Assembly (NCBI GenBank): GCA_041661405.1
Contig: JBAZUL010000001.1
Span: forward strand, 28,403 to 92,402
Reading direction: 5' to 3'
DNA length: 64,000 nt
Origin: Patescibacteria group bacterium
GTDB taxonomy: Bacteria; Patescibacteriota; Patescibacteriia; Patescibacteriales; JBAZCA01
This document shows positions 1 to 54,306 of the stretch, piece by piece. The translations under genes and the position numbers were made by a program. The stretch's first letter is position 1; every line of letters starts with the position of its first letter. The notes under the pieces were generated by a model that saw nothing but the letters and a program-made list of their open reading frames with translations, was not told the origin of the DNA and ran no database searches.

Positions 1-358
1 CGTGCTGAGGATCCCGGCCGGTGGCAAAAGCGTTTGGCGCCGTATCGTCAATAATATAGATTTTCGGCACAGGCAATCCGGCGGTGATGCAAAGATTTTC
101 CACAATATGGTAAAGCTCGCGGTTGGAATCGTGATCCACCGGCTTGGCCGAACTCATGGCTAAAACGATTTTGTCGGAAAACCAGTAGCTAATAAACGAA
201 GAAATTACACTAAAACCTACGGCAATATATAAAATTGCCGAGTCATTCATGGCCTGCGAAATTACATAGCCAATAATCATGATAAACACGAAAAACCCGG
301 TTATTAAAAGCCAGGTTTTTCTTTTATTTGAATCAGAATGAGTGTAGAGAGTAGACAT
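1..358 (-). CDS. htpX: Zinc metalloprotease HtpX (M48 family), N-terminal part; gene runs off the left edge
   Basis: Own translation of the minus strand from ATG at 358: MSTLYTHSDSNKRKTWLLITGFFVFIMIIGYV...PKIYIIDDTAPNAFATGRDPQH. It has two N-terminal TM helices and the NAFATGR motif typical of HtpX, and sits next to lemA. Absent from the ORF track because it is truncated. Confidence 0.8.
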   Translation of the reverse strand, partial: MSTLYTHSDSNKRKTWLLITGFFVFIMIIGYVISQAMNDSAILYIAVGFSVISSFISYWFSDKIVLAMSSAKPVDHDSNRELYHIVENLCITAGLPVPKIYIIDDTAPNAFATGRDPQH

Positions 359-428
359 AACACGTAACATGAAACACGCAACACATAATAATAATCTTAT
401 TCTATGTTATGTGTTATGAGTTATGTTA
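357..428. repeat. Heptad-built hairpin (between the lemA stop and the htpX start)
   Basis: Left arm aacacgt aacatga aacacgc aacacat. Right arm tatgtta tgtgtta tgagtta. The arms are imperfectly complementary and each has a 7-nt period. Confidence 0.7.
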
Positions 429-1008: not shown

Positions 1009-1860
1009 TTATGAGTTAATATTATTTTCAAAATATTCTTCTTTTAACGAACCGTTTACATGGTCAATTGAATTCCAGGGTAAAATTATCACCACCGGCT
1101 TGGCTTTTTTACAGGCTTTTTCCATTATGCGATAATCACTTGATACTTCTCTTGCTCTTAAAGCGGCATCTGCTTTATGGGGTTCATCCACTTTAGCGAC
1201 TTCACTTTTCAGCCAACTCTCTAACTTTTTTTCGTTATCCAGAAAGGCGGGTTCACATAAAAAACCGACACACTTACCTTGAACCGCCAATTGTTTTCCT
1301 CCCGTTCTCCCCCAAAAATCAACTCTATTAAATGCATCTTTTGACGGAGCGGCCAGACTTGGCGATAAGCCTTTAGCTTCCATATACTTATACACTCCAA
1401 CCTGCCCGATTATTCCTTTTTTATGACCTGGCCATTTCGGAGATGAACTATTTGATTCAAGCCGATCAGCAATCCTGCCGCATAAACTAAAAAGATCAGA
1501 TAAATAATCTCTATTGCCGCCATGAGTTAATACAAATTTCGTTCCAATGTTCATAAATCTGGCAAAAGACAAGTTCAGTGTTCTACTTTCCGCCTCTCTG
1601 GCATCACCACTCAACTGAACCCCGTGCAAAGAATCATATCTATACTGATCTATTAAATCGCGTATCATCAATACTATAAATTCAGTTTCTTTATCGTGAT
1701 TGGAAAATTCTGCCAGAAATTTTTGCCGAATTTCCTTAAATTTTTCCAAACTTAGAGATTCAACGGCCGGCAAAGCCGAGAGCGCTTCTTCAATTTTTCT
1801 AAATCTTTCGTTATAATCATCCGCCATTGCAACTCGTTCTTGAATGGGAGCTTCTTTCAT
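1009..1860 (-). CDS. Hypothetical protein, no recognisable domain
   Basis: 283-aa uninterrupted ORF. Its start abuts the stop of the upstream gene at 1860. Visibly more AT-rich than flanking housekeeping genes. Confidence 0.5.
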   Translation of the reverse strand: MKEAPIQERVAMADDYNERFRKIEEALSALPAVESLSLEKFKEIRQKFLAEFSNHDKETEFIVLMIRDLIDQYRYDSLHGVQLSGDAREAESRTLNLSFARFMNIGTKFVLTHGGNRDYLSDLFSLCGRIADRLESNSSSPKWPGHKKGIIGQVGVYKYMEAKGLSPSLAAPSKDAFNRVDFWGRTGGKQLAVQGKCVGFLCEPAFLDNEKKLESWLKSEVAKVDEPHKADAALRAREVSSDYRIMEKACKKAKPVVIILPWNSIDHVNGSLKEEYFENNINS

Positions 1861-3122
1861 TATTTTATCCTTACATTTAATAAAACATTCTTTCCCCTCG
1901 CTTTAGTCGCGTAATAGCCGGTTAACAGCCCTACAGTTTTAAAAACATCGGATTCTTTTTTTATGCTGTCCATTTTTAACTCGGCCAAATTGATTTTTTC
2001 CGGAATTAACGTCTCAATCAAATCATTCTTAATTCGTAATTCGTAATTCGTAATTCTAACGAGCGTCGTCGGTCCGGTTAGCTCATCTAATTTTACCACA
2101 ATATCCCCATTTTTAGCTAGCTTTTCCAGTTTTTCGCTTTCGTCCCGATCCCGACCGACAATAACCATGACCCAATGAAAATTTATATCGGCTTCTATTC
2201 TGACATCTTTCAGATTTTTTCCAATAAGCGATTTTAATGAATTTTTTAAAGACAAGGTAATCTTTGGCGTATTTTGGCGTATTTTCGCGTCCCCGGCCAT
2301 TTCTAATTTCAGCCAAAATACCCGGCCATATTTTAAGAGTTCAACGTCTTCAGTTTTGCAGTCAGGACAATGGGTAATAATGTCCAAAACTTTTTTTCCG
2401 CCTTCCGGATCGGTTAATAAGCAACCTCCGGCGGGCGAAGGGTAATTTTTAATGCCAAATTTTTTGGCTAATTTCATCTGTGCTTCCCTTGACCGCCCTT
2501 TAATATCCAATAACCTTTCCCTCGTAACAAATCCATTTTTTTCCGCGTAAGTTTCCGGAAGAAGTTTTGCTGACAAAGGCCTTAAAACTTCCACTCCGGC
2601 CATTTTCGCGACCTTTTCCAAAGCTTCTTTATTCTGGGAAAACGGCCGCTGGCCGAGCACTTCTCCGGTCGCGATAAAATCGGAAAGTCTTTTATCACTT
2701 AAGTTGTCCGGAAACTTAATTCTCTCCCCCTTGGCAAGGGGGAGTCCGATCGCCGAAGGCGAGCGGGAGGGGGTGTGTTTTCCGGATGGGGGTGAGGTTA
2801 GTTCCGCGGACGCTTTTTTTAGATATTTCCCGGCCTCGCGGATCATCAGACTGTGGCAATCTATGCAAGGATTCATATTTTTTCCATAACCGCAGGACGG
2901 ACATTTTACGATTGACAAAATCTTTTCCGAAATATTTTCTTCAATTAAATCAATGCCGATTATTTTCGCGCTTTCCCGCGCCCGGCCGCAATCAAAAAAA
3001 TTACTGGAAAAACAAATCCCAATAACTTTTATCCCCTGATCCATGAGCACCCGGGCGGCGAGCATTGAATCCAGTCCGCCGGAAAAGAGAACCAGAGCCC
3101 TTACTGCTTTGCTTTTTCCCAT
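1860..3122 (-). CDS. PP-loop ATP pyrophosphatase, ThiI/MnmA-like tRNA thiolation enzyme lacking a THUMP domain
   Basis: N-terminal SGGLDS PP-loop. NPCIDCHSLMIREAG and ATGEVLGQRPFSQ resemble ThiI/MnmA adenylation-domain motifs. GGCLLTDP lies near the C-terminal third. The gene carries two in-frame repeat insertions (see repeats at 2030 and 2722). Confidence 0.65.
   Translation of the reverse strand: MGKSKAVRALVLFSGGLDSMLAARVLMDQGIKVIGICFSSNFFDCGRARESAKIIGIDLIEENISEKILSIVKCPSCGYGKNMNPCIDCHSLMIREAGKYLKKASAELTSPPSGKHTPSRSPSAIGLPLAKGERIKFPDNLSDKRLSDFIATGEVLGQRPFSQNKEALEKVAKMAGVEVLRPLSAKLLPETYAEKNGFVTRERLLDIKGRSREAQMKLAKKFGIKNYPSPAGGCLLTDPEGGKKVLDIITHCPDCKTEDVELLKYGRVFWLKLEMAGDAKIRQNTPKITLSLKNSLKSLIGKNLKDVRIEADINFHWVMVIVGRDRDESEKLEKLAKNGDIVVKLDELTGPTTLVRITNYELRIKNDLIETLIPEKINLAELKMDSIKKESDVFKTVGLLTGYYATKARGKNVLLNVRIK
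2030..2057. repeat. In-frame heptanucleotide tandem array (TAATTCG x3 + TAATTCT) inside the PP-loop ATPase gene
   Basis: The plus strand reads taattcg taattcg taattcg taattct. It encodes RITNYELRIKN on the minus strand. Confidence 0.85.
2722..2800 (+). repeat. GC palindrome + GGGGTGAGG element (type 3), in-frame inside the PP-loop ATPase gene
   Basis: CTCCCCCTTggcAAGGGGGAG, then TCGCCgaaGGCGA, then GGATGGGGGTGAGGTT. Translated on the minus strand as ELTSPPSGKHTPSRSPSAIGLPLAKGE. Confidence 0.7.
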
Positions 3123-4771: not shown

Positions 4772-7700
4772 CTATCTCCTAGCTACCCCCAGCCAAACCT
4801 CCGCCCCCTCCACCTTAACATTTTTCTCCGCCAGCGCGCCTTCAATTTTTCCTTCGGCCAGACTGTCGGCTAGAGTATCTTTCAATATTCCGTCCTTATA
4901 ATTTTCAATCGCTTTTTTCACTTCTTCGCCGGATGTTTCATAATAAATTTCAATCCGGTCTTTAATTGTCAGTCCGGCATCTTTCCGAAGGCCGTTAACT
5001 AGCCGGACGATCTCGCGCTTAACACCCTCGGCTTTCAGCTCAGGGGTTATTTCCGTGTCTAATTCAACTTCCATATTGCCTTTATCATCTTTAAATACAA
5101 CTTCTTTCACATTCACTTCGTCTTTAACTAGCTCCAAAAATTCATGATCAATTGATAATTTATAATTAATAATTAATAATTGATTTAATGGTTGTCTTAC
5201 TTTTATCCCGGCCTCGTCTCTTTTTGCCAGCGCCAACTCTACGATATTTCTTACATCTTCCATCTTGGCGATTATTTGACTATCAACTCTCCCCGCCTCC
5301 GGCCAGCCTTCCAGATGCACGGATTTTTCTTCATCCTTAAAATCATTGCCGGTTACTTTCTGCCAAATTTGCTCGGCAATGAACGGCGTAAACGGCGCCA
5401 TAACTTTTGATAACTGCAATAACGCGAATCGCGTCGTATTGAGAGCCGCTTCTTTGTCTTTTTCATCATCAGCTTTAAACCGGTCTCTTGATCTTCTTAT
5501 ATACCAGGTTGATAGGTCATCAACAAAATCGGCAATCGGCCGGGTCGCTTGCGGCAAGTTATAATTTTCCATAGCCTTGGTAACTTCTTTTATAAGCTCA
5601 TTCAGCCTCGCCAATATCCATTGATCAAGAATATTTTTTTCCCTCTCCTTACTAATGAGAGGGTCGGGGTGAGGTTTGGAGGCAGAAGAGGCAAACATTT
5701 CGTAAAACTTATAGACATTCCAGACCAACATGTTTATTTTTCTAAGCGAATCCGCGACTCCTTTTTCAAAAAAATTAAGGTTTTCGGCGAGCATTACCGG
5801 CGAAGTTAAGAGATAATAGCGCAAAGCGTCAGCCCCGTATTTTTCAAAAATCAAAGTCGGATCCGGATAATTCTGGAGCCGTTTGGACATTTTTTTCCCG
5901 TCCTCGGCAAGCACGATTCCGTTGACAATAACATTTTTAAAAGCCGGTTTTTCTTTTATCGCCGTAGCAATGATGTGGAGGTAATAAAACCAGGCGCGGG
6001 TCTGATCAACGCCTTCGGCAATGAACTGGGCCGGAAAATTCTTTTCAAATTTTTTTTTATTCTCAAAAGGATAATGCTCCTGCGCGTAAGGCATGGACCC
6101 GGAATCAAACCAGGTATCTAAAACATCCGGAATCCTTTTCATTGTTCCTTTGCATTTTTCGCAGGAGAAAGTTATCTCATCAACAATATGCTTATGAATA
6201 TCAGTAATTTTCTGCCCGCTTAACTCTTCCAGTTCTTTAACCGAACCGATAACCTTTAGCTCTTCGCATTTTTCGCATTTCCAAATCGGAATAACCGAGG
6301 CCCAAAATCTTTGGCGGGATATAGACCAGTCGCGGGCGCCGGAAAGCCAATTGCCAAACCGGCCTTCCTTAATATGACCGGGCGACCAATTAATCTCTTC
6401 CGCCAGTTTCAAAGCCTTATCTTTGATGGCCAAAACTTTTACGAACCAGGAAGTGGTAGCGTAATTAATGAGCGGCGTTTCACAGCGCCAGCAATGCGGG
6501 TAGCTATGCTCAAATTTTTCTTTACTGAATAATAAATTTTTCTTCGCGAGGTATTTTATAATCTCCACGTCTGTCGCTAGAACATCATCTTTTGGCTTAA
6601 CATTCATGCCGGAAAAATCACCGGCTTCATCCTTAATACTGCCATCCATCCGAACGTGCTGGATAAAGGGCAGATTAAATTTTTTTCCAAGGTTGCGGTC
6701 GTCTTCGCCAAAAGCCGGAGCGATGTGGACGACTCCGGTTCCGTCTTCAGTCGTAACAAAATCGCCCGGATAAATTTTCCAGCCGTTCTCCCGATTTTCC
6801 AATTTTTCATTTTCAGCGTAATAGGGAAAAAGCGGTTTGTATTTTTTACCGACCAGTTCTTTTCCTTTAATATTATCCTCTATACTCCAGAAACGAGCAT
6901 CGGGTTTATTTGTTTGATTTTTAAATCGGTAACCATGCTCCGTTTTTTCCAATGAATCTTTTGAGGTTATAAAAAGACTGTTTTTCTCCTTGGCATAAAA
7001 ATCATCATTTCCTTCACTTTCAGTAAATTCGGCTTCAGGCTGAACTCTAATTTTTACATACTCAATATCCTCCCCTACCGCCAAAGCCGCGTTGCCGATT
7101 AAAGTCCAAGGTGTCGTTGTCCAGGCTAAGACATAAGTTCCTGGTTCGTCTTCCAATTCAAATTTTACTGTCGCCGTCAAATCTTTAATCATCTTATAGC
7201 CCTCGGCCACTTCCTGCTGGGAAAGCGTGGTCTCGCATCTCGGACAAATATGCATAGAGCGGTAATCTTCGTAAACCAATCCCCTGTCCCACAGTTCCTT
7301 AAAAACCGACCAAACCGACTCCATGAACGGAAGATCCATGGTTTTATAAGAATTCTCCATGTCCGCCCAGCGCCCTAAGCGCGGTATTACTTTTTTCCAC
7401 TCATCAACATAAGCCAAAACCTTGGAACGGCATTTTTCGTTAAACGCGGCCACGCCCATTTCCTCAATATCCTTCTTGCTCTTAGAGCCCATTTCCTTTT
7501 CAACGATGTTTTCAATCGGCAGGCCATGGCAATCCCAGCCCCATTTCCGCTCCACCCTAAAACCCCGCATTGTCCAAAAACGAGGAACAGCGTCTTTCAT
7601 AACCGAAGCGACAATATGGCCGTAATGCGGAGTACCGGTCGCGAACGGCGGGCCATCGTAAAAAACATAATCGCCTTTGGGTTTTTCACCAGCCGGTTTT

Positions 7701-7837
7701 TCTACCGATTTTTCAAAAGTTTTCGCCCGATTCCAAAATTCCAAGACTTCCTCTTCCATTTTCGGAAATGGACTTATTCCGCGAAGCCCTGCCGAGGCGG
7801 GATTGACTGAGGCTTTTTTATCTTTTTCATTAGTCAT
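4772..7837 (-). CDS. ileS: Isoleucine--tRNA ligase
   Basis: 1021 aa with HIGH-type motif PHYGHIVA and KMSKS-type KMSKR. Class I editing-type synthetase architecture with CxxC pairs. Confidence 0.97.
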   Translation of the reverse strand: MTNEKDKKASVNPASAGLRGISPFPKMEEEVLEFWNRAKTFEKSVEKPAGEKPKGDYVFYDGPPFATGTPHYGHIVASVMKDAVPRFWTMRGFRVERKWGWDCHGLPIENIVEKEMGSKSKKDIEEMGVAAFNEKCRSKVLAYVDEWKKVIPRLGRWADMENSYKTMDLPFMESVWSVFKELWDRGLVYEDYRSMHICPRCETTLSQQEVAEGYKMIKDLTATVKFELEDEPGTYVLAWTTTPWTLIGNAALAVGEDIEYVKIRVQPEAEFTESEGNDDFYAKEKNSLFITSKDSLEKTEHGYRFKNQTNKPDARFWSIEDNIKGKELVGKKYKPLFPYYAENEKLENRENGWKIYPGDFVTTEDGTGVVHIAPAFGEDDRNLGKKFNLPFIQHVRMDGSIKDEAGDFSGMNVKPKDDVLATDVEIIKYLAKKNLLFSKEKFEHSYPHCWRCETPLINYATTSWFVKVLAIKDKALKLAEEINWSPGHIKEGRFGNWLSGARDWSISRQRFWASVIPIWKCEKCEELKVIGSVKELEELSGQKITDIHKHIVDEITFSCEKCKGTMKRIPDVLDTWFDSGSMPYAQEHYPFENKKKFEKNFPAQFIAEGVDQTRAWFYYLHIIATAIKEKPAFKNVIVNGIVLAEDGKKMSKRLQNYPDPTLIFEKYGADALRYYLLTSPVMLAENLNFFEKGVADSLRKINMLVWNVYKFYEMFASSASKPHPDPLISKEREKNILDQWILARLNELIKEVTKAMENYNLPQATRPIADFVDDLSTWYIRRSRDRFKADDEKDKEAALNTTRFALLQLSKVMAPFTPFIAEQIWQKVTGNDFKDEEKSVHLEGWPEAGRVDSQIIAKMEDVRNIVELALAKRDEAGIKVRQPLNQLLIINYKLSIDHEFLELVKDEVNVKEVVFKDDKGNMEVELDTEITPELKAEGVKREIVRLVNGLRKDAGLTIKDRIEIYYETSGEEVKKAIENYKDGILKDTLADSLAEGKIEGALAEKNVKVEGAEVWLGVARR
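5151..5185. repeat. In-frame heptad array (ATTGATA ATTTATA ATTAATA ATTAATA ATTGATT) inside ileS
   Basis: Five 7-nt units on the plus strand. They encode ..NQLLIINYKLSID.. in IleRS. Confidence 0.7.
5641..5676 (+). repeat. GC palindrome + GGGGTGAGG element (type 3), in-frame inside ileS
   Basis: CCCTCTCcttactaatGAGAGGG followed by TCGGGGTGAGGTTT. Encodes KPHPDPLISKEREK in IleRS. Confidence 0.65.
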
Positions 7838-8816: not shown

Positions 8817-9230
8817 CTACTCTTGATACCCACCGCCGCCTGTTCCGCCCCACGGTAAAGCGTTAAAGACAAAATAAGTTATAGAATAAGAGGCAATTAT
8901 GATAATGAGGCCGATGACGGCGTGGCGGATCTGGTCCAGCGATTCTTTGGTTTTCTGCTCGTCGCCGCGGGCGTTCAAATATTTCCAGCCGGCTAAAATA
9001 ATAAGGATGATAAAAATAATTCCAAGCAAAGCCATAAATCCAAGAACAAGTGAAGCGATTACGGCGCCAATGCTGGCCGTGCTACCGGTCTCATAACCGC
9101 CTTCTTTGGCCACATCGCTGGCAAAAGTTTTGACATCGTTGGCGAATGAACTGTTAAGAAATTGCGCCGAGCAGAAAAGCGGAAACAGGGAAAGTATCAG
9201 ATACCAAATTTTAACCGCGATTTTTTTCAT
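8817..9230 (-). CDS. TrbC/VirB2-like (T4SS-pilin-type) small membrane protein, paralog 1 of 6
   Basis: Signal peptide, variable region, then two TM helices flanking the conserved loop AGWKYLNARGDEQKTKESLDQIRHAVIGLIIII. Gly-rich C-terminus. Confidence 0.75.
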   Translation of the reverse strand: MKKIAVKIWYLILSLFPLFCSAQFLNSSFANDVKTFASDVAKEGGYETGSTASIGAVIASLVLGFMALLGIIFIILIILAGWKYLNARGDEQKTKESLDQIRHAVIGLIIIIASYSITYFVFNALPWGGTGGGGYQE

Positions 9231-9231
9231 G

Positions 9232-9660
9232 TTATTTTATTATATACGTCGCCACGAAAGCCCAAAGGGCGAACGCGCTGATAATAATAATCAGCCCGAT
9301 TATCGCCTGGCGGATGGTGGCCAGGGACTTTTTTACTTTTTCCTCTTCGCCGTGGGCGGACATGTATGTATAACCGGCGTAAATTATGAAAATCAAAAAC
9401 ATAACTCCGAGGACTGACAAAAACCCGCCGATAGCCGAGCCAAAAATTTTTCTTAAAGTGGTGGCGTCCGTATTTTCGGCATAACCGGCGCCCTCCGCCA
9501 CCAGCTTCATTTTTTCCGTTAAAGCATTTTTTGTCCCAGTATTTCCGGTTTGCGCCAAGGTTAAATTTGGCAAAACAGCCAGACTAAAAAATACCAAACT
9601 CATAAAGAATATCCGCATCGCGTAAATTTTTCCTTTATCAAAAATTAAATTCATAATCAC
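9232..9660 (-). CDS. TrbC/VirB2-like small membrane protein, paralog 2 of 6
   Basis: Same architecture, with loop AGYTYMSAHGEEEKVKKSLATIRQAIIGLIIII. The start could instead be the Met at 9618 (MRIFFMSLVFF signal peptide). Confidence 0.75.
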   Translation of the reverse strand: MIMNLIFDKGKIYAMRIFFMSLVFFSLAVLPNLTLAQTGNTGTKNALTEKMKLVAEGAGYAENTDATTLRKIFGSAIGGFLSVLGVMFLIFIIYAGYTYMSAHGEEEKVKKSLATIRQAIIGLIIIISAFALWAFVATYIIK

Positions 9661-10058
9661 TTTAATAAAAACGATAAAGCGCCGGTCGCAAAAATGGAAA
9701 GCGCGTAAGCCGCCACTACGATTAACAGTCCGATGGTCGCATTCCTTAATATGCTCTGAGCCTTTTTAACTCTTTCTTCATTGCCCATGGACTGCATCCA
9801 CTCAAACCCGCCGTAGATAATAAGGCATAAAAATATAATACCCAGCGCGTAAAGCATAAGCTGGACTATCTGGCCGATGTATTTATATATCGCGTCCGGT
9901 TCAGAATCCTCTTTGTAACCGGCGCCTTGATTAAAAGTTTTTAAATTCTTGTCAAAAGCGTCATTTAGGGCTTGCGCCTGAAGCGGCCGGATATTGACGG
10001 CGGCGAGTGCCGTTGATCCTATAACCAATATAAAAAAAAGATGTAGGAGATATTTCAT
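9657..10058 (-). CDS. TrbC/VirB2-like small membrane protein, paralog 3 of 6
   Basis: Signal peptide MKYLLHLFFILVIGSTALA and loop GGFEWMQSMGNEERVKKAQSILRNATIGLLIVV. Its stop overlaps the paralog 2 start. Confidence 0.75.
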   Translation of the reverse strand: MKYLLHLFFILVIGSTALAAVNIRPLQAQALNDAFDKNLKTFNQGAGYKEDSEPDAIYKYIGQIVQLMLYALGIIFLCLIIYGGFEWMQSMGNEERVKKAQSILRNATIGLLIVVAAYALSIFATGALSFLLK

Positions 10059-10062
10059 AGGC

Positions 10063-10551
10063 TTATTTCGCGGCCAGGATGCTTCCGATATAAGCAGTGA
10101 TCGCGTAGGCGCCGAGAATAATAATCAGGCCGATCATGGCGTCGTTAAACATCTGCTGAGCTTTTTTAACTTCTTCGGCATTGCCCCGGGCCATCATCCA
10201 CATGAATCCGGCGTAAATCATGAGCCCGAGAAATATTATACCCAGGAAAGATAAGCCAATCCCGACGAAATATCCCGCCCGCTGGTATAAGTCAACTGTT
10301 CCCGGCTCAGCGCCGTAACCTTCTTTAAAAGTTTCTAACAACCCGGCCGTTGTCTTTCCAGTGAGTCCGGTGGTAGGTGGAGCAGTAGTCTCGGCCAAAA
10401 CCGCCGAAACCTGAAAAATGAAAAAAAATAAAAAAACCGCGAGAGGGATTAATGCCTGGCGAAAATTAAAGAATGATTTCATAAACAATATTCGCTCTGA
10501 ATATTTATAGTCCGTTACTGCCTTAAACACCACTGATAAAGTCATGTCCAA
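10063..10551 (-). CDS. TrbC/VirB2-like small membrane protein, paralog 4 of 6
   Basis: Loop AGFMWMMARGNAEEVKKAQQMFNDAMIGLIIIL. The likely true start is the Met at 10482 (MKSFFNFRQALIPLAVFLFFF signal peptide). Confidence 0.75.
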   Translation of the reverse strand: MDMTLSVVFKAVTDYKYSERILFMKSFFNFRQALIPLAVFLFFFIFQVSAVLAETTAPPTTGLTGKTTAGLLETFKEGYGAEPGTVDLYQRAGYFVGIGLSFLGIIFLGLMIYAGFMWMMARGNAEEVKKAQQMFNDAMIGLIIILGAYAITAYIGSILAAK

Positions 10552-10611
10552 AGCAATGGGCCCGTCCGCCTCTGGTTGGAAATCATTATAGACAGGCCCG
10601 AAAATTTTATA

Positions 10612-11007
10612 TTATACTGCGGGTGTTCCGCCGGTTGCCTCAAAAACCGTTTTTATCAGGAACTGGGTGATGCCGAAAGCGGCGAGTATTATTACCAAAC
10701 CGACAGCGCCGGCCTGAATAAGTTTTCTCGCTTCCGTGATTTTATCGTCATTTCCCTGCGCGGTCATCCATTTAAAACCGCCGATGAGGATGATAATCAC
10801 GGCAATCAGGCCGAGGAACCCTAAGATAACCCTGATTACGTTTACGATGATGCTTTTCGGGTCTTCATTGCCCAAGCCGATATTACTGGCGTCGTTTAAT
10901 CCGAGGTCATTAGTCGTAAGCGCCTGAGCGTTAACGGTTACGGCAATGGACAAAAGCGGAACAATAACCAGCATAGCCATCATCAGTTGAATAAGTTTTT
11001 TCTTCAT
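10612..11007 (-). CDS. TrbC/VirB2-like small membrane protein, paralog 5 of 6
   Basis: Signal peptide and loop GGFKWMTAQGNDDKITEARKLIQAGAVGLVIIL. Most similar to paralog 6. Confidence 0.75.
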   Translation of the reverse strand: MKKKLIQLMMAMLVIVPLLSIAVTVNAQALTTNDLGLNDASNIGLGNEDPKSIIVNVIRVILGFLGLIAVIIILIGGFKWMTAQGNDDKITEARKLIQAGAVGLVIILAAFGITQFLIKTVFEATGGTPAV

Positions 11008-11071
11008 AATTCACCCCCTCTCCTTTCTAAAGAGAAAAATTACAGTCTCTTTTATTAATAGTAAAAACAAA

Positions 11072-11461
11072 CTAATCGTTGACAACGTTGTTTTGGATAG
11101 TGGTAATGAGGAAATTGGTGATGGCAAAAGCCGCTAAAACAATTAAAAGTCCGATCGCTCCGTTGACTATATACTTCCTGCCCTGAGTCACCTTATCATC
11201 ATTCCCGCCGGCCGTCATCCAGATAAATCCGCCGATCAGGATGATAATCACGGCGACGATAGCCAGGAAGCTTAAAGCTACCTGGATAATGTTAACCACG
11301 ACATTTTTCGGATTGGCGTTCTGTAAGCCGATATTGTTGGCAAAGTTAAGGCCAAAACTGCCAAGATTATCCTGCGCTAAAACTGCCGTAGACGGCAGAA
11401 GAACAGCCGCTAAAAGAAGCGCCGCCGCCGTTAATTTAATTTTCTTTGTCCAGTTGTCCAT
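11072..11461 (-). CDS. TrbC/VirB2-like small membrane protein, paralog 6 of 6
   Basis: Signal peptide and loop GGFIWMTAGGNDDKVTQGRKYIVNGAIGLLIVL. First gene of the minus-strand array. Confidence 0.75.
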   Translation of the reverse strand: MDNWTKKIKLTAAALLLAAVLLPSTAVLAQDNLGSFGLNFANNIGLQNANPKNVVVNIIQVALSFLAIVAVIIILIGGFIWMTAGGNDDKVTQGRKYIVNGAIGLLIVLAAFAITNFLITTIQNNVVND

Positions 11462-16423: not shown

Positions 16424-17428
16424 ATGGCGCAAAAACCATTATCCAAGCCAATCATCTTTTCCGGCATCCAGCCTTCGGGCAATCTGCATCTCGGCAATTA
16501 TCTCGGGGCGATTGTCCAATGGGTGGAACTGCAGGATCAATACGACTGCATTTTCTGCGTCGTGGATTATCACGCCATAACCGTTAAGCAGGATCCGAAA
16601 ATCCTGAACGAAAAAATCGTTGAAATCGCGAAAATTTATTTAGCCTCTGGCATTGACCCGAAAAAATCCATTATTTTTCAGCAGTCGGCCCGGCCGGAGC
16701 ATACGGAATTGGCGTGGGTGTTGAATTGCGTGGCTCGTATCTCGGATCTGGATAAAATGACCCAGTTTAAAGATAAGGCCGGAAAAAATCAGGAATCCGT
16801 AAGCGTGGGATTATACGACTATCCGGTTCTAATGGCCGCTGATATTTTACTTTATGACACAGACTTAGTGCCGGTCGGCGAAGACCAGTCCCAGCACGTT
16901 GAACTGGCGCGGACTCTTGGGCGGCGGTTTAATAAGCAATTCGGCGAAACATTCAAAATCCCGGAAGTAAAAATTAAGGAAGAATCGGCCAGGATTATGG
17001 GCTTGGACGACCCGCTGAAAAAGATGAGTAAAAGCGCGGCCAGTGAAATGAATTATATCGCCCTGACTGACGCGCCGGAAAAAGCCGCGAAAAAAATCAT
17101 GCGAGCCGTAACCGATTCAGGTTCGGAAATAAAATACGATAAAGAGAATAAGCCGGCTATCGCCAACTTAATGACCATTTATTCACTTCTCTCAAACACA
17201 TCTTTTAAAGACATTGAAAAAAAATACTCAGGCAAAGGCTATGGGGACTTTAAAAAAGACCTGGCGGAAATCGTAAAAAAATTCCTCGCCGGATTTCAGG
17301 AAAAATACAATTCCATTTCGGATGAGGAAGTAAAAAATATTCTCAGGGCGGGCGCGGAAAAACTGGCGCCGATCGCGGCAAGGAACATGGAAAAAGTGAA
17401 AAAAAATATCGGCGTGCTGTTAAAATAA
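16424..17428 (+). CDS. trpS: Tryptophan--tRNA ligase
   Basis: 334 aa with HIGH-type GNLHLGNYLG and KMSKS. Confidence 0.95.
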   Translation: MAQKPLSKPIIFSGIQPSGNLHLGNYLGAIVQWVELQDQYDCIFCVVDYHAITVKQDPKILNEKIVEIAKIYLASGIDPKKSIIFQQSARPEHTELAWVLNCVARISDLDKMTQFKDKAGKNQESVSVGLYDYPVLMAADILLYDTDLVPVGEDQSQHVELARTLGRRFNKQFGETFKIPEVKIKEESARIMGLDDPLKKMSKSAASEMNYIALTDAPEKAAKKIMRAVTDSGSEIKYDKENKPAIANLMTIYSLLSNTSFKDIEKKYSGKGYGDFKKDLAEIVKKFLAGFQEKYNSISDEEVKNILRAGAEKLAPIAARNMEKVKKNIGVLLK

Positions 17429-17451
17429 TCTTCAAAAATAACCGCTTAAAA

Positions 17452-17490
17452 AATCACCCCGCGCTTATCAGGATGCGGGGTGATTTTTTT
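17452..17490. terminator. Bidirectional rho-independent terminator between trpS and valS
   Basis: ATCACCCCGC-gcttatcaggat-GCGGGGTGAT, flanked by an A run and a T run. Confidence 0.8.
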
Positions 17491-17517
17491 ATCTCATTTT
17501 TCTTAATACCAGGTAAT

Positions 17518-27623: not shown

Positions 27624-27630
27624 ATAACAA

Positions 27631-27700
27631 ATAACAGACGACAGATAACAGAAAGCAGAAAATATCGCCGATTATCTGCTGTCTATTAGCTGTTATCTAA
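27631..27700. repeat. Heptad-built hairpin in the glyA 5' leader
   Basis: ataacag acgacag ataacag aaagcag (loop aaaatatcgccgat) tatctgc tgtctat tagctgt tatctaa. The arms are ~80 percent complementary by eye. Confidence 0.75.
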
Positions 27701-28494: not shown

Positions 28495-29874
28495 TCACAT
28501 TTTTCCCAAAAACCTCTTCTTCCTTAAAAGCCGGTGATAGCCAATGGCAAAGCGGTGCGCTTCGTCGCGGACCCGCTTGATTAAATGCAGAGCCGGCGAC
28601 GCGAGCGGCAGTTCCAGGGGCATTTTTTCTCCGGCGAAAAACAGCTTGTCCGGCGCGATAGCTGATCTTAAACCTTCACCCTTTGAAATGGCAATCACCG
28701 GAATATCCAGCTTATGTTTTTTTAATATTCTTACCGCCACGTTCAACTGTGCCTTGCCGCCGTCAATAATAACGAGATCCGGCAATGGCCAGCGTTCCTT
28801 CGCGGCGTTGTCGCTTAAATCAGCGGCTGACCTTCTGAATCTCCTTACCAAAATTTCTTCCAGCATTTTTATGTCCCCGCCTTTGGCTTTTAATCCGCTA
28901 AACCGCGTTTCATCGGCTTTAATCTTAAACTTCCGGTATTCGTTCCGATCCGGTTCGCCGCCGGAAAATACCACCATTGACCCGACCGCCTCTTTGCCGA
29001 AAATATTAGAAATATCATAACCCTCAATCCGTTCCGGACGCTTAGGCAGGCTAAGAATTTTAGCCAGCTCCACGACATCATTGGCGTATTTTTCCCCAAT
29101 ACTTAAAACTCCGGACATATCAAGCACGCGCTCAATATTTTCCAGCCGGAATTTTAAGAGATTTAATTTGTTTTCCAGGCCGATCCTTACCGCGCCCTCG
29201 TCAGTCGCCAATGAAGCTTTATCCATGGATTTAATTTCTCTTTCCAGATTCCTGATTTCTAATTTCAAATTCCTGACAATGTCTTTTTTCTTTCCCTCCA
29301 AAAACTTTATTGCCTGTTTGATATAATCAAGATAATCTTTGCGGGATATTTTTTCTTCGCACATCCCGGCGCATTTGCCGACGTGATAATAGAGGCAGGC
29401 GCGTTTAGGCAAATTAAAGCAGGACCGGTAAGGCCAGATCCGGCGGATAATTTTCAGGGTCTCGCGCACCGCCAGTCCCGATGTGAACGGCCCGAAATAC
29501 CGGCCGGACTTATCAAGCGTCCGGGTGGAATAAATCCGCGGCCATTCCTCTTCAACGGAAACCTTGATATAGAGAAACCTTTTGTCGTCGCGCGACAGGA
29601 TATTGTATTTGGGCTGGTATTTTTTTATCAGGTTGGCTTCAAGTAAAAACGCCTCTACTTCGCTATCAACTATAATCCATTTTACGGTGGCGATTTCCAA
29701 AACCATCCGCTCTTTGGCCGGGCCGAGCGCCGAACCTTTTTGCCAATAGGAAAGCACGCGGGATTTCAGGTTAACTGCTTTGCCCACGTAAATTATTTTT
29801 CCGCCCGCGTCAAAAAATTCATAACAACCGGGAGTTTCGGGGATATTCAGGTTTTTTGCCTGTTTAAGGGTCAT
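28495..29874 (-). CDS. uvrC: Excinuclease ABC subunit C, short form lacking the C-terminal (HhH)2 domain
   Basis: 459 aa. N-terminal GIY-YIG (GCYEFFDAGGKIIYVGKAVNLKSRV). The protein ends at DEAHRFAIGYHRLLRKKR, where full-length UvrC continues into the HhH domain. Confidence 0.9.
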   Translation of the reverse strand: MTLKQAKNLNIPETPGCYEFFDAGGKIIYVGKAVNLKSRVLSYWQKGSALGPAKERMVLEIATVKWIIVDSEVEAFLLEANLIKKYQPKYNILSRDDKRFLYIKVSVEEEWPRIYSTRTLDKSGRYFGPFTSGLAVRETLKIIRRIWPYRSCFNLPKRACLYYHVGKCAGMCEEKISRKDYLDYIKQAIKFLEGKKKDIVRNLKLEIRNLEREIKSMDKASLATDEGAVRIGLENKLNLLKFRLENIERVLDMSGVLSIGEKYANDVVELAKILSLPKRPERIEGYDISNIFGKEAVGSMVVFSGGEPDRNEYRKFKIKADETRFSGLKAKGGDIKMLEEILVRRFRRSAADLSDNAAKERWPLPDLVIIDGGKAQLNVAVRILKKHKLDIPVIAISKGEGLRSAIAPDKLFFAGEKMPLELPLASPALHLIKRVRDEAHRFAIGYHRLLRKKRFLGKM

Positions 29875-42316: not shown

Positions 42317-42718
42317 ATGAAGAATAAAGGAGAACAAATAAAATATTGGAAAGCCTCGGCTGAAAAAGACTGGAAAGCAGCCAATTTTCTTTACGCGAGA
42401 AAATATTATTGCCACTCCCTGTTTCTTTGCCATTTGGCTTTGGAAAAATCGCTCAAAGGGCTGGTGATACTGAAGACCGGGGAACCGGCTCCTTACATCC
42501 ACCGGCTTGACCAGCTTGCCTCGCTATCAGGGATTGAATTAACCGGGAACCAACTTAAAAACTTTAAAATTATTTCCGCTTTTAACATTTCCGGGCGATA
42601 CGATGATTATAAATTTTCTTTTTATAAGCAATGTACGCCCGCCTATTCAAAAGAATATTTGAATATCACTAAGGAACTATTTATATGGCTCAAAAAAAAT
42701 TACCCAAAAGAATATTGA
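42317..42718 (+). CDS. HEPN domain protein (toxin-like partner of a minimal nucleotidyltransferase)
   Basis: 133 aa. YYCHSLFLCHLALEKSLKGLV ... YIHRLDQLA ... NISGRYDDY matches the helical HEPN pattern found with MNT partners. Confidence 0.75.
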   Translation: MKNKGEQIKYWKASAEKDWKAANFLYARKYYCHSLFLCHLALEKSLKGLVILKTGEPAPYIHRLDQLASLSGIELTGNQLKNFKIISAFNISGRYDDYKFSFYKQCTPAYSKEYLNITKELFIWLKKNYPKEY

Positions 42719-43014
42719 ACGAAATAAAGGAATACGTAAAGATTTTAAAATCGGAAAAATTGCCGATTGATAAAGTCATCCTTTACGGTTCGTTCGCCAA
42801 AGGCAAACAGCACGAATGGAGCGATGTTGATCTCTGCGTTGTTTCTCCTGAATTCGCCAACGCTTTCAAAGCTATGGAATATCTGCTCTCAAAAACGCCG
42901 ACGGTCTCCCGCCACCCGATTGAGCCGATCGGCTTTCGTTCCGCCGATTTAAAAGACAATTCCAGCTCCCTTATCAGGGAAATAAACCTCTATGGCATAG
43001 AAGTCGCCGTTTAA
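42685..43014 (+). CDS. Minimal nucleotidyltransferase (MNT) domain protein
   Basis: 109 aa. ILYGSFAKGKQHEWSDVDLCVV gives the GS-x-G ... DxD pol-beta-type NTase motif. Overlaps the HEPN gene by 34 nt. Confidence 0.8.
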   Translation: MAQKKLPKRILNEIKEYVKILKSEKLPIDKVILYGSFAKGKQHEWSDVDLCVVSPEFANAFKAMEYLLSKTPTVSRHPIEPIGFRSADLKDNSSSLIREINLYGIEVAV

Positions 43015-43309: not shown

Positions 43310-44899
43310 TTAAGCGAACTTCTTCTCCATATACGTCCCTCTGAGCCTGTATCCAAACTTCCGGTAATAACCCCGCGCCCCGACTCCGGAAATAATCATC
43401 ATTTTTTTAAAACCATTCTGCCGGGCGATTTTCTCCGCTTCGGCGAGTAGCATCTTCCCGAGACCCGAATGTTGAACCCGGCCGGCCGCTCCGACCGGCG
43501 CCAGCTCGCCGTAAACGTGCAATTCGCGGATAATGGCGGCCACGCCCGATAGCCTCAGCCGGCAAAACCCGTAAATAATTTTCCCAGCCTGTGCCGAGCT
43601 TGCCGAGACAGAATCCACGCTTATAAAATACTCATCTCCTCCCGATGCCTTATAATTTAAAATTCTTAATTCATAATTCTTAATTTTTAATTCTTTTGGC
43701 TCCCGGCATCTTATGCAATCGCACTTCACGCCAAGGTCTTTCATTACCTGGCGCAAATTAGTTATCTTATTGCCGGCCATGATGGACTCGCCCGGAATGT
43801 CGCGGATTAATCTTATTATCCGAACATAAGGCGGAACAGCTTTTTTACAGTCAATTATCAATTGCTTTAAAACTTTATCGCTGTACGTCTTATATTTTCC
43901 GGCTTTCCACCATCTAAAAAGCAAACTGCCGCGCGTGACCACGGTCGGATAAAATTTAATCTGATCCGGCTGGAATCGTTCGTCTGAAAAGAGCTTTTTA
44001 AACATAGCTAAATCCTTTTTGGCCGTTGCCCCGGGCAGTCCGGGCATGAGATGGTAAGTTACTTTAAAACCGAAATCTTTTAATAGCTTTGTCGCCTTAA
44101 CAGTTTCCGCGACCCCGTGTCCGCGTTTATTTATTTTCAGGATTTTATCGTCAATCGCCTGAACGCCTAATTCCACGCGGGTGCAACCGAGTTCCCGCAT
44201 CTCGCGCAATTCTTTTTCATCAATATAATCAGGCCGGGTTTCAAGGGTTAACCCGATAATCTTATATTTAGCCTTTTCGTTTTTCTTTTGCTCGCCTTGC
44301 AACTGACGACTAAGAACGGAAATTTTTAACTTAGCATTGTATTTCTGTTTTTTGTTGTCTGTTTTCTGTTGTCTAAAATTGTTCGCCGCCCGAAAACACT
44401 CCTTAATATACCAATATTTATACGCCGTTGGTAGAACGCTCCATGTTCCGCCAATCACGATAATTTCTATCTTTTCCGGCTCATGCCCGTTGGCTTCAAG
44501 GGCGCTAAGCCTCAGCTGGACTTGCAAATACGGATTATAATTACAGCGGATAGCCCGCATCACCGCCGGTTCGTTGGATAAATAACTCTGCGGCACGTCC
44601 TTTTCCGTCGGGCAGTAAACGCATTTTCCCGGGCACGCGTAAGGCATGGTAAGAACCGCGACCGGCGCGATACCGGACATGGTTCTTATTTCCCGCTTGC
44701 GGAGTATCCGCCTTAAAATGGCGCTACTAGAACCTGACCCTTTTAACTCTCTTAAAATATCCGAATTTTTAAAAATCGGCAAACCGTATTTTTTTGCGAT
44801 TTTTCTCTTAGCCGCCATCAGCTCCGAGGCTGTTGTTATCGGCGATTTTATCAATTCATTCACAGCTTCCTGAAAATCGTTTTTTATTGAATTTTTCAT
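43310..44899 (-). CDS. elp3: Elp3-type radical SAM / GNAT tRNA uridine(34) acetyltransferase
   Basis: 529 aa. Radical SAM cluster motif CPGKCVYCP and a C-terminal GNAT region (LHVYG...HSGLGKMLLAEAEKIARQNGFKKMMIISGVGARGYYRKFGY). Carries an in-frame heptad-repeat insertion. Confidence 0.85.
   Translation of the reverse strand: MKNSIKNDFQEAVNELIKSPITTASELMAAKRKIAKKYGLPIFKNSDILRELKGSGSSSAILRRILRKREIRTMSGIAPVAVLTMPYACPGKCVYCPTEKDVPQSYLSNEPAVMRAIRCNYNPYLQVQLRLSALEANGHEPEKIEIIVIGGTWSVLPTAYKYWYIKECFRAANNFRQQKTDNKKQKYNAKLKISVLSRQLQGEQKKNEKAKYKIIGLTLETRPDYIDEKELREMRELGCTRVELGVQAIDDKILKINKRGHGVAETVKATKLLKDFGFKVTYHLMPGLPGATAKKDLAMFKKLFSDERFQPDQIKFYPTVVTRGSLLFRWWKAGKYKTYSDKVLKQLIIDCKKAVPPYVRIIRLIRDIPGESIMAGNKITNLRQVMKDLGVKCDCIRCREPKELKIKNYELRILNYKASGGDEYFISVDSVSASSAQAGKIIYGFCRLRLSGVAAIIRELHVYGELAPVGAAGRVQHSGLGKMLLAEAEKIARQNGFKKMMIISGVGARGYYRKFGYRLRGTYMEKKFA
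43661..43695. repeat. In-frame heptad array (AATTCTT AATTCAT AATTCTT AATTTTT AATTCTT) inside elp3
   Basis: Five 7-nt units. They encode KELKIKNYELRILNYK on the minus strand. Confidence 0.8.
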
Positions 44900-51032: not shown

Positions 51033-51108
51033 TTATGAAGAATTATGAATCAAGAATTATGAATTACGGGTTGTGATTCCCTTGATTCATTATTCATAAT
51101 TCATTATT
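51033..51108. repeat. Heptad-built hairpin between the ymdB stop and the HU start
   Basis: aattatg aatcaag aattatg aattacg (loop) tgattca ttattca taattca ttattca. Confidence 0.7.
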
Positions 51109-51910
51109 CAATTTGAATAATCTCGTTTATCCTTTTTATACTTTTTGCTTTGCCGGTCTTTTCGTCTATCCCGACAACCGCTCCGCTTAAAATGGCTTTT
51201 CCTTTTTCCGGAATCACATGGCTTCTTTTTATCTGGTCAAGATAGGTTTTTAAGATATCTTCCTTTTCCACTCCGAGCGACCCCCCGCTAAAACCGGTCA
51301 TGCCGACGTCGGTCAGGTAGGCGGTCCCGGCCGAGGTGATTTCTTCGTCCGCGGTTTGGATATGGGTATGGGTGCCGAGAAGGGCGCTGGCTTTTCCGTC
51401 AACGTAATATTTCATCGCCACCTTTTCCGAAGTGGTCTCGGCATGCATATCAATAATAATAGCAGATAACTTTTTTGTCCGCAAGCTAGCATTAGCAAAA
51501 ATCCCGTCAATTTCCCGGAAAGGGCAGTCAAAATCTTTTTTCATGAAAACCCGGCCGATCAGGCTGATAAGAAGCACCCTGAATTTACCTTTTTCAATAA
51601 TCGCGCAGCCCCGGCCCGGCGCCAAAGGCGGCCAGTTAGCCGGACGGAGAATCGGAAGACTGCCGGCGTAGACTTCTTCAATACCCTTTAACCGGTCAAA
51701 AGCATGGTCGCCTCCGGTAAAATAATCAACGCCGGCGGCATTAAGCTCTTCCAGGGTTTTTTTTGAAACGCCTTTGCCGTGGGCGACATTATCGGCGTTG
51801 GCGATTACAATATCGGCTTTATATCGCTTTTTTATTTTCGGCAACAAAATCTTTACAGCTTCGCGGCCGATTTTCCCGCTTATGTCGCCGATAAAAAGTA
51901 TGTTTAACAT
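51104..51910 (-). CDS. ymdB: YmdB-like metallophosphoesterase (2',3'-cyclic-nucleotide phosphodiesterase family)
   Basis: 268 aa. LFIGDISGKIGREAV, NADNVAHGKG, GGDH and HAETTSEK motifs. Located downstream of rny as in Firmicutes. Confidence 0.85.
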   Translation of the reverse strand: MLNILFIGDISGKIGREAVKILLPKIKKRYKADIVIANADNVAHGKGVSKKTLEELNAAGVDYFTGGDHAFDRLKGIEEVYAGSLPILRPANWPPLAPGRGCAIIEKGKFRVLLISLIGRVFMKKDFDCPFREIDGIFANASLRTKKLSAIIIDMHAETTSEKVAMKYYVDGKASALLGTHTHIQTADEEITSAGTAYLTDVGMTGFSGGSLGVEKEDILKTYLDQIKRSHVIPEKGKAILSGAVVGIDEKTGKAKSIKRINEIIQIE

Positions 51911-53553: not shown

Positions 53554-53573
53554 AGGATCTTAATTCTGTTTTA

Positions 53574-53751
53574 AGAAGCTGTTTAAATAACTATTTCGTC
53601 GCGAGGCTTTTCCGCTTTGAGCGAGACGAGAAAGACGAGCAAAATAATACGAATCGTAGCCTGAGCTACGGTGAGTATTATTTTGCGAAGTCTGACGAAG
53701 TCGCAGCCGAAGCAGAAAAGCCGCAGCAGAAAAAGTTTTTAAACAGCTTCT
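53574..53751. repeat. Rod-like imperfect inverted repeat of about 180 nt directly upstream of the rny start
   Basis: Paired blocks are 53574-53587/53738-53751, 53605-53612/53715-53722 (GGCTTTTC/GAAAAGCC), 53639-53650/53675-53686 (12 bp), and an apical CGTAGC-ctga-GCTACG. A large, partly paired internal loop sits in between. Confidence 0.7.
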
Positions 53752-54061
53752 AAGAGGTTTTATTTTCCTTGAAACGCGGTTCGCGGAAAAATCCGGTTTA
53801 TAGGGAGAAAGTTTTGAGAATTATTCCGGCCAAATTAAAATCGGGCTAATTTTCATTGCCTTTTTTAAAGAGTGGCGGGCTAAAAACAGTTTGGGGGTTC
53901 AATTCCGCCCCGTTTTTAACCGTAAAATCGTTTTTTTTGCCAGCCGAATTACTAAAAACTACGCTGATATTCTCAAAAAAATTCATAGCATTTCCGAAAA
54001 ATTCCTCTAATAACAGACATTTTATTAATTACTGTATTTAAGCTACCATATCGCCCCGGTT

Positions 54062-54117
54062 TTGACAAGTAATTTGCATGTGAGCAAATTATCCCGCAGC
54101 CGCAGGCGTGCGGGATC
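54062..54117 (+). repeat. Promoter-associated structured repeat, type 1, copy R6
   Basis: TTGACAAGTAATTTGCATGTGAGCAAATTATCCCGCAGCCgcaGGCGTGCGGGATCC. Confidence 0.6.
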
Positions 54118-54123
54118 CATTCT

Positions 54124-54217: not shown

Positions 54218-54230
54218 TAAAGAAAATTTC

Positions 54231-54306
54231 CTAGCGAACAGCGTATAGCTTTTAGCGTTTAGCATTTTGACTAGCTTTATTCTGAATGCTGAACGCTAAA
54301 CCCTAA
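54231..54306. repeat. Heptad-built hairpin in the infB 5' leader
   Basis: tagcgaa cagcgta tagcttt tagcgtt tagcatt (loop) tctgaat gctgaac gctaaac. Confidence 0.75.

Follow-up and report, generated by a model that had tools for sequence, protein, structure and literature searches.

Why do three unrelated enzymes of one bacterium carry, deep inside their coding sequences, tandem arrays of a seven-nucleotide unit, and why do two of them share the peptide NYELRI? The question is raised by a 64-kb stretch of DNA (hereafter the window) from a Patescibacteria metagenome-assembled genome (MAG) with a genomic GC content of 45%. A first-pass annotation had reported heptad arrays within its genes for a PP-loop ATPase, Elp3, and isoleucyl-tRNA synthetase (ileS), had ascribed the common hexapeptide to the repeat alone, and had read the arrays as lineage-specific insertions in surface loops. 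All three arrays are indeed present at those places and, by direct reading of the sequence and its open reading frames (ORFs), each is in frame with its host ORF. They are about 35 to 42 nt long:

2023..2057 (-): PP-loop array, five units (AGAATTA, CGAATTA x3, AGAATGA), peptide RITNYELRIKN, residues 356-366
43652..43693 (-): Elp3 array, six units (GAATTAA AAATTAA GAATTAT GAATTAA GAATTTT AAATTAT), peptide ELKIKNYELRILNY, residues 403-416
5148..5182 (-): ileS array, five units with an AATTA core (CAATTAT, TAATTAT x2, AAATTAT, CAATTGA), peptide QLLIINYKLSI

The tandem, head-to-tail 7-nt organization was verified with Tandem Repeats Finder (TRF), with our own scan, and by direct reading. The first host gene (1860..3122, minus strand) encodes a 420-aa protein with a ThiI-type PP-loop at its N-terminus and a weak, sub-threshold NFACT-R_2 match in its C-terminal part, and its top homolog, from a MAG named "Patescibacteria group bacterium," is sequence-identical. 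The second (43310..44899, minus strand) is Elp3 (TIGR01211, 546 bits), and the third (4772..7837, minus strand) is a type-2 IleS with matches to tRNA-synt_1, Anticodon_1, and DUF5915. The ileS array has the AATTA core in common with the other two, with a different unit and a peptide without NYELRI.

The recurrence of NYELRI can be read directly from the genetic code. Since 7 and 3 are coprime, 21 nt of repeat run through all three phases, and (GAATTAN)n is therefore translated as the cyclic peptide E-L-(R/G)-I-(K/T/R/M)-N-Y; (GAATTAC)3, for example, gives ELRITNY on one strand and VIRNS*F on the other. All four GAATTAN units bring a stop codon onto the complementary strand (the complement of GAATTAC always contains TAA), so that an array of this family is possible inside an ORF in one orientation only. 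Pure GAATTAA, GAATTAT, or GAATTAG arrays meet a stop even on the sense strand, and in the in-gene arrays the seventh base in each frame is one that avoids TAA, TAG, and TGA. When metagenomes were scanned for (GAATTAN)3GAATTA, at least 120 contigs of 23-67% GC were found. Among the arrays listed, 16 of 126 lie inside ORFs of at least 150 aa, each with NYELRI or a close variant, and the NYELRI-bearing proteins among these listed matches include NAD-dependent DNA ligase, LeuRS, the PheRS beta chain, a family-2 glycosyltransferase, O-antigen ligase, a DUF2298 membrane protein, a protein sorted by the type IX secretion system (T9SS), and a GMC oxidoreductase. The translation of the unit and the presence of NYELRI in these unrelated proteins bear out the earlier proposal: the hexapeptide is an automatic by-product of the DNA repeat, with no shared protein motif behind it, and the signal is the underlying heptad DNA rather than the peptide match. 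As evidence by itself the common hexapeptide was dropped, since different window proteins have 31 hexamers in common, compared with about 11 in composition shuffles. A modal number of five units in the metagenomic arrays was likewise not retained, four and five units being equally frequent among the matches listed under the strict core criterion. When six ELRITNY repeats were used as a query, the matches were mostly short ORFs, and of those with a named source many belonged to heterocystous cyanobacteria (Nostoc, Cylindrospermopsis, and Anabaena), which places the GAATTAC unit within the cyanobacterial heptamer-repeat repertoire.

The 7-nt period is kept at the level of the DNA. In random synonymous recoding of each peptide with the codon usage of the window, the observed 7-nt match was reached in 0.02% of trials for the PP-loop array (P=2e-4), 0.06% for Elp3 (P=6e-4), and 0.01% for ileS (P=1e-4). 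Leucine in both GAATTAN arrays is always TTA (24% genome-wide), isoleucine in all three arrays is always ATT (43%), arginine is always AGA or CGA (17% and 5%), and lysine is AAG (22%) at 3 of 6 positions; codon choice preserves the period beyond what the peptides need. Moreover, among four PP-loop orthologs with 43-72% protein identity, nucleotide identity was 77-91% in the array versus 42-69% in the flanks, and identity at third codon positions was 75-92% versus 28-50%. The units also change in concert: where the window has CGAATTA x3, its closest syntenic relative (L001; comparison loci are cited by such handles) has CAAATTA x3, the same G-to-A difference in three consecutive units. At the same codons as the window ileS array, L001 carries GAATTAA AAATTAA GAATTAT GAATTAC GAATTGA (ELKIKNYELRI), of which the first 27 nt equal the Elp3 array of the window, while the window ileS array has other units. 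Two orthologous arrays may be less alike than two non-orthologous ones. Units recur at several loci within one genome yet differ between orthologous loci. Considering the recoding P values, the third-position conservation, and the concerted change together, the arrays appear to be subject to unit-to-unit copying or to conversion among arrays, with their length held by selection.

Across the Patescibacteria, arrays recur at the same positions with a great variety of units, which makes these positions hot spots. At the Elp3 site, 44 of 79 orthologs (62-76% identity to the window protein) were heptad-codable at 9 or more of 14 residues, versus 7 of 395 control windows drawn from the same ortholog proteins, and at the PP-loop site the corresponding figures, for 8 or more of 11 residues, were 41 of 102 orthologs versus 1 of 510 controls. 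Examples of heptad-coded ortholog peptides are KITNYELRIIKY, KFKVKSLKLKVIKY, KFSIFNFQFSI, SKFKIQNSKFKI, and QLSIINYQLSI. In the DNA, the Elp3 locus holds GAATTAC x4 in L090, AAAGTTW x5 in L089, and GAATTAA-type units in L088; PP-loop orthologs have AAATTCC, AGAAGTA, and GAATTAT; and the IleS site has GAATTAA-type units, GAAATTK, GAAATTA, and GAAGTTA, with AATTTTC and CAATTAT among the further units that differ between lineages. Through this turnover the length stays constant. The Elp3 segment is nearly invariant at 17-19 aa, its differences being 2 aa or a GC-rich insert of about 10 aa and never 7 aa, and the ortholog peptides keep their polar/hydrophobic pattern at constant length. PP-loop orthologs of 43-72% identity carry a same-length, 5-unit array at the same columns, and at all three sites the unit number of the window equals that of the relative with ∼72% protein identity. 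In one relative (L212; PP-loop protein 69% identical), ileS is called as two genes of 843 aa and 164 aa, and the frameshift falls inside a GACGACA x3-4 array (L212:3788-3815) at the boundary before the C-terminal domain, which is consistent with the gain or loss of one heptad. A second GACGACA array lies in the same ileS at L212:2788-2824.

None of the window arrays is a recent insertion: at the sites concerned, orthologs have segments of equal length. In phmmer alignments with solved structures, LRILNYKASGG of the window Elp3 lies opposite LRRLDYPASGG of Dehalococcoides Elp3 (5l7j), and likewise for the Methanocaldococcus protein; the window Elp3 is even 5-8 residues shorter than the solved homologs in the loop preceding this motif. 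The IleS segment VRQPLNQLLIINYKLSIDHE aligns to VKQPLQSLSLVVTEEDVEWK of PDB 8c8w without insertion, the sole gap being one residue just after the array. At two of the three sites, therefore, the array-coded segments align with homologous residues of distant solved structures, which is the very observation that the first-pass annotation had named as contradicting its claim of lineage-specific insertion. At the PP-loop site the claim fares somewhat better: the Oceanirhabdus and Tritonobacter orthologs lack about 30 residues that begin exactly at the array. However, the segment length at the array columns is equal in all Patescibacteria orthologs examined, and the ∼30-aa segment is an old, clade-wide extension. 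The annotation had also inferred selection after insertion or expansion; the stop-avoiding seventh bases do show selection, but insertion itself is unsupported at Elp3 and IleS.

Structure models give a similarly divided answer on surface loops. In the AlphaFold2 (AF2) model of Elp3 (30 sequences; mean predicted local distance difference test score [pLDDT], 78), residues 400-408 form a loop and residues 409-418 (YELRILNYKA) a core beta-strand with a pLDDT of ∼91, so that half of this array is placed in the protein core. In the PP-loop model (mean pLDDT 83), the array comprises the end of strand 353-357 and a 9-residue hairpin loop (358-366) before strand 367-372, with a pLDDT of ∼78-87. The IleS array position is probably a strand with a loop. 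At the nucleic acid level, the in-gene arrays are non-palindromic and show no more folding than shuffled sequence (z -0.03 and -1.7).

The three arrays are part of a wider excess of period 7. In the window, 10-11 period-7 arrays were observed, in agreement with TRF, versus 0.0-0.5 expected from dinucleotide-preserving shuffles, and among other periods 4-6, 8, 9, and 11-13 gave 0-2 arrays each, period 10 gave 1, and period 14, a multiple of 7, gave 7. The excess was found again in the related loci L001, L002, L004, and L005. Outside the clade, period-7 arrays are patchy, being absent from most Syntrophales and Desulfobacterales loci and abundant in one Tritonobacter and one Oceanirhabdus locus. 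Several unit types occur in the window (GAATTAN, TAATTAT, TAACACG, ATAACAG, TAGCNTT, and ACAGAMA), and intergenic DNA is favored, with 8 hairpin arms in the ∼11% of non-coding sequence versus 5 arrays in the ∼89% of coding sequence. These arms belong to four intergenic hairpins, in which they form inverted, imperfect heptad arrays, each hairpin with its own unit:

51033..51110 (-): hairpin with GAATTAN-family arms, in the spacer from the ymdB stop codon to the HU start codon; RNA folding energy -26.4 kcal/mol, z -5.7
27624..27700 (-): hairpin with arms of ATAACAG and GACAGAT type, its end 2-3 nt short of the SHMT start codon; fold z -5.3
54240..54306 (+): hairpin with arms of TAGCTTT, TAGCGTT, and TAGCATT and their complement, followed after 12 nt by the IF-2 start codon; fold z -5.0
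356..426 (-): weaker hairpin with TAACACG-type arms, after the LemA stop codon and before the following gene (by synteny, an M48 peptidase); fold z -2.3

The kinship that had been claimed between the in-gene arrays and the hairpin at 51033-51108 is confirmed, its arms (51033-51110) consisting of GAATTAT, GAATCAA, and GAATTAC units of the same NAATTAN family. The hairpins before SHMT, HU, and IF-2 end 2-13 nt before the start codon, with no evident Shine-Dalgarno (SD) sequence, and the spacer upstream of HU in L088 also holds a heptad hairpin, built of TAACGCN units instead. Rfam at the gathering threshold found only 7 tRNAs in the window. A HutP-like (UAGNNNN)3 reading of the hairpin at 54240 was dropped, since other arrays have no UAG.

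Taken together, we consider it probable, though by no means secure, that these elements are heptamer simple-sequence arrays resembling the short tandemly repeated repetitive (STRR) sequences of cyanobacteria, homogenized at the DNA level and fixed in length by selection on the protein. Heptamer arrays pervade this Patescibacteria genome and those of its relatives, in intergenic DNA as inverted pairs and in genes singly and in the stop-free orientation, and the polar/hydrophobic alternation of AATT-type peptides should suit strand and loop positions. The mechanism of homogenization, as we infer it, would be a DNA-level process, rather than the protein, that maintains the 7-nt register, most likely either transient slipped-strand misalignment or templated repair within an array or conversion between arrays with a common AATTA core. 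Such a process would spread changes from unit to unit with the length unchanged, and protein selection would fix the unit number, the frame, and the stop-free variants.

Several points weigh against this explanation. Simple slippage predicts variation in unit number, yet the counts are equal in ∼72%-identity relatives at three sites, and generic slippage leaves the specificity for period 7 unaccounted for. The above-flank nucleotide conservation and the invariant AATTA core with two free positions would be equally expected of a selected nucleic acid element. The window also comes from a MAG, though its arrays are shorter than typical sequencing reads.

Because a selected nucleic acid element would also show above-flank conservation, a cis-element explanation was kept, although we regard it as unlikely. 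The arrays would then be selected RNA or DNA elements, a signal for binding or pausing in heptad register that housekeeping genes and 5' untranslated region hairpins would carry at fixed positions, with the peptide as a passenger; the candidates are a site for an S1-type or cold shock protein (CSP)-type single-strand binder, a translation pause before beta-hairpin folding, and a processing site. Array and third-position conservation far above the flanks, codon choice constrained beyond the peptide, fixed unit number, and conserved position across orthologs all agree with such a role, as do the character of the in-gene arrays as unstructured AU-rich stretches, the abutment of three of the four hairpins on start codons without an obvious SD sequence, and the retention of the hairpin upstream of HU in a relative. 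Against it, the unit at one orthologous site can be wholly different between lineages (GAATTAC, AAAGTTW, AATTTTC, AAATTCC, and GAAGTTA), the hairpin units differ too (GAATTAT versus TAACGCN), and no sequence-specific reader fits such variety. In addition, 44-60% of orthologs are without a clear array at the sites in question, a candidate binder was not found, and the GAATTAN arrays occur, among the matches listed, in contigs of 23-67% GC with no common context. An analogy with uptake signal sequences was dropped in view of the many different units that coexist in one genome.

A more speculative idea, to which we give somewhat less weight still, is that the heptad register itself is selected or written, either by a period-7-specific, sequence-independent process (an enzyme or a repair pathway) that repeatedly turns defined sites in housekeeping genes and 5' leaders into 7-nt arrays or as a heptad-register cis-regulatory code for binding, pausing, or processing, conserved across the Patescibacteria and common to the cyanobacterial STRRs. 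A register selected or written in this way would account for the conservation of position, the third-position conservation, and the hairpins abutting start codons.

It is doubtful that the arrays are footprints or parts of small in-frame mobile elements, of the kind known as Rickettsia palindromic elements (RPEs) or miniature inverted-repeat transposable elements, as first proposed for this locus. RPEs are said to have been described by Ogata et al. in 2000 as palindromic insertions of ∼100-150 bp, absent from orthologs and in frame in conserved genes, and the likeness to this Patescibacteria clade lies in the tolerance of repeated DNA in frame in conserved genes, where it adds or replaces peptide. 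It is strongest in other lineages, in which ∼5-unit arrays at the same sites are interrupted between units 2 and 3 by GC-rich and mostly palindromic cores of 26-33 nt (mostly 30 nt) that form part of the translated frame. Six such cases were found, three at the PP-loop site (L005:3937-3965, L006:3906-3934, and L007), one at the Elp3 site (L091), and two at the IleS site (L002 and L212), with TCAGCCAGAGGCTGA TCCGCCTCTGGCGGA as an example. Compared by eye, the cores of L005 and L006 are reverse complements of each other at 26 of 30 positions, so that one core occurs in either orientation, and the cores may be a very small mobile palindrome. The ∼30-aa PP-loop segment that the two non-Patescibacteria orthologs lack, opening at the array, and the dispersal of one unit type over several loci of one genome also point in this direction. 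The parallel with RPEs nevertheless does not extend to the window itself: its arrays are ∼35 nt long, non-palindromic, non-folding, and coreless, and at Elp3 and IleS they replace rather than add residues, with no gain in length over distant homologs. Moreover, the same 5-unit array is found in orthologs down to 43% identity, and the constant 2|3 position of the cores, equally explained by beta-turn tolerance, may simply mark the turn as the sole tolerated place. Among the metagenomic matches listed, no information content was found in the 25 nt on either side of 109 GAATTAN arrays; these arrays have no conserved termini, and a larger mobile element with conserved ends was ruled out on this ground. 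A family of double GC mini-hairpins flanked by heptads could not be defined, a scan of all loci having given just two cases that were already known.

Phase variation, in which one unit more or less would shift the frame and toggle tRNA modification enzymes, seems very improbable. The model is neuO of Escherichia coli K1, in which many 7-nt units at the 5' end vary at high frequency and are translated as a 7-aa periodic peptide. This phage-borne gene is phase-variable, a precedent for control of expression by in-frame heptanucleotide repeats (PMC13001214), and it resembles the window genes in that a 7-nt repeat in coding sequence keeps the frame for certain unit numbers only. Elp3 and the ThiI-like enzyme are tRNA modifiers of a dispensable type, and the L212 ileS provides a natural frameshift in a GACGACA array. 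However, unlike in neuO, the window arrays have just 4-6 units, are stable between relatives (identical unit number at ∼72% identity), and lie deep in their ORFs, not at the 5' end; ileS, an essential gene, also carries an array, and there were no length alleles among the orthologs sampled. Least credible of all, to the point of being hardly tenable, is a by-product of selection on the protein for a symmetric, amphipathic beta-hairpin, together with codons biased toward AT, which would suit the strand-and-loop setting of the sites in both models and the patterned, constant-length ortholog peptides, but protein-level convergence with codon bias is ruled out by the synonymous recoding, rejected for all three arrays (P 1e-4 to 6e-4), in a genome of 45% GC whose dominant codons are not TTA, ATT, AGA, CGA, or AAG, the peptides being exactly those of a cyclic 7-nt unit and the same unit also building non-coding hairpins.

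The preferred explanation, homogenized heptamer arrays of fixed length, places the window among previously described repeats. Heptamer repeats in bacteria have reportedly been known since 1990, when Mazel et al. are said to have described the cyanobacterial STRRs as heptamer repeat arrays, and their excess over other repeat lengths was reportedly noted in 2007. PMC4692102 summarizes heptamer simple-sequence repeats (SSRs) as over-represented in many bacterial genomes (Mrazek 2007) and cites a suggestion that relates period 7, through slippage, to the DNA segment held by the active site or footprint of the replicative polymerase. The window arrays belong to this known heptamer-SSR kind. Like STRRs and heptamer SSRs, they consist of head-to-tail 7-nt units, show an excess specific to period 7, include several unit families per genome, have a patchy phylogeny, and are mostly intergenic, sometimes as inverted pairs able to form stem-loops; the GAATTAC unit itself occurs in Nostocales. 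Unlike STRRs, they come from a Patescibacteria host, have 4-6 units, and lie in several cases within the reading frame at conserved sites in the interior of housekeeping enzymes, sites that even deeply diverged orthologs have in common while their units change.

A second likeness is to the TAACTGA direct repeats of Beggiatoaceae, Cyanobacteria, and Bacteroidetes, which lie a few nucleotides upstream of start codons (MacGregor 2015, PMC4679880). Within ORFs these repeats are found only in the stop-free orientation, and they give LSVISYQ, with predicted beta structure, in unrelated proteins (PMC4679880). Heptamers near start codons, the stop-free orientation in ORFs, a repeat-coded peptide common to unrelated proteins, and predicted beta structure are thus features of both systems. 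The unit differs, however, and the upstream elements of the window are inverted arrays forming hairpins rather than direct repeats; the in-ORF TAACTGA repeats are mostly at protein termini or in hypothetical proteins, whereas the window arrays are internal, at orthologously conserved enzyme sites. In Coxiella burnetii, the 23S rRNA intervening sequence (IVS) has tandem GACAGAT heptamers at its base, with a copy number that varies among strains (PMC4990558). The Coxiella heptamers directly precede a start codon, in a position that is both the 5' end of the IVS and an RNase III processing site (PMC4990558). GACAGAT resembles the window hairpin at 27624-27700 (ACGACAG ATAACAG); the Coxiella heptamers lie inside an rRNA IVS.

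A literature search on heptanucleotide repeats in the Candidate Phyla Radiation, or on NYELRI, found nothing, and among the papers listed for tandem or heptanucleotide repeats in the Patescibacteria none dealt with this group. The features for which we found no description in the literature are the location of in-frame arrays inside housekeeping enzymes at sites conserved among orthologs, the unit turnover at constant length, and the above-flank nucleotide conservation. With arrays at the same codon positions of Elp3, IleS, and the ThiI-like ATPase in hundreds of Patescibacteria lineages, these sites offer a tractable handle on the origin and function of heptamer repeats: gain, loss, unit turnover, and selection can be measured along a tree, for which the flanking codons serve as internal control. 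There are practical consequences as well. Repeat-encoded peptides such as NYELRI make spurious local similarity that can mislead alignment, domain calling, and inference of insertion, and arrays can split genes, as in the L212 ileS. Should the nucleotide conservation reflect function and not homogenization, it would suggest an undescribed regulatory layer in organisms with very few known regulators.

Two further heptad arrays were found within window genes, one of them in Elp3 itself:

44344..44374 (-): second Elp3 array, ACAGAMA-type units (TRF period 7/14), peptide RQQKTDNKKQK, in a radical-SAM domain segment
29234..29276 (-): imperfect array in a UvrC-like gene, units GAAATTA, GAAATCA, and GGAATCT, peptide NLKLEIRNLE, in a linker

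The Elp3 segment that holds the array at 44344-44374 is missing from Methanocaldococcus Elp3 and measures 55-86 aa in orthologs; it is one of two further Elp3 loops that are rich in heptad-coded peptides in orthologs. Another variable loop, after FCRLRL (P0130, P0144, P0176, L089, and L090), consists in some cases of heptad-coded peptides (SHNSYLITHISQLATHN in L088) and in others of a GC-rich element, which reads TPLNPPFARG or TPFIPPLKGGRG in translation and is a palindrome of the form ACCCCC..GGGGGG in the DNA; in the window this loop is minimal. The UvrC-like gene (28495..29874, minus strand) has Pfam matches to GIY-YIG (16-91) and UvrC_RNaseH (272-444).

Other arrangements of heptads were noted in the comparison loci. 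In L005, another Patescibacteria genome, about 16 GGATGTC units (443-555, 113 nt) stand in frame in ileS and would add about 37 residues as an RMSDVGC-type repeat. In L001, complementary arrays at 17934-17968 and 18035-18058 (CAAATTA/AAATTCC type and GGAATTT), about 70 nt apart, lie in a FemAB-family gene; both are stop-free, and the pair may form an in-frame hairpin. Mutually complementary, nested array pairs in the Tritonobacter locus flank whole genes around a 360-aa ORF (L063:7183-9988), and in the Oceanirhabdus (Clostridia) locus complementary pairs surround spacers of 190-370 nt without a convincing ORF (L069:10977-11217 and 17423-17855). Spacers of the latter type follow immediately on the PP-loop gene and on rho. 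The idea, prompted by the Coxiella IVS, that inverted arrays enclose four-helix-bundle (S23p/IVS) genes was not borne out: the L069 spacers inspected have no convincing ORF, and the genes in L063 are ordinary ones.

Three more observations concern the window itself. The hairpin upstream of IF-2 lies in a 766-nt stretch (53554-54318) between the divergent RNase Y and IF-2 genes that has no ORF of 70 aa or more and no Rfam match at the gathering threshold, and that includes an 86%-complementary inverted repeat at 53639-53686. At 42317-43014, a HEPN-like ORF overlaps a small nucleotidyltransferase-like ORF, as judged from their sequences. Finally, a run of six small paralogous ORFs occupies 8817-11461, and their counterparts in L001 carry the Pfam domain T4SS_pilin.

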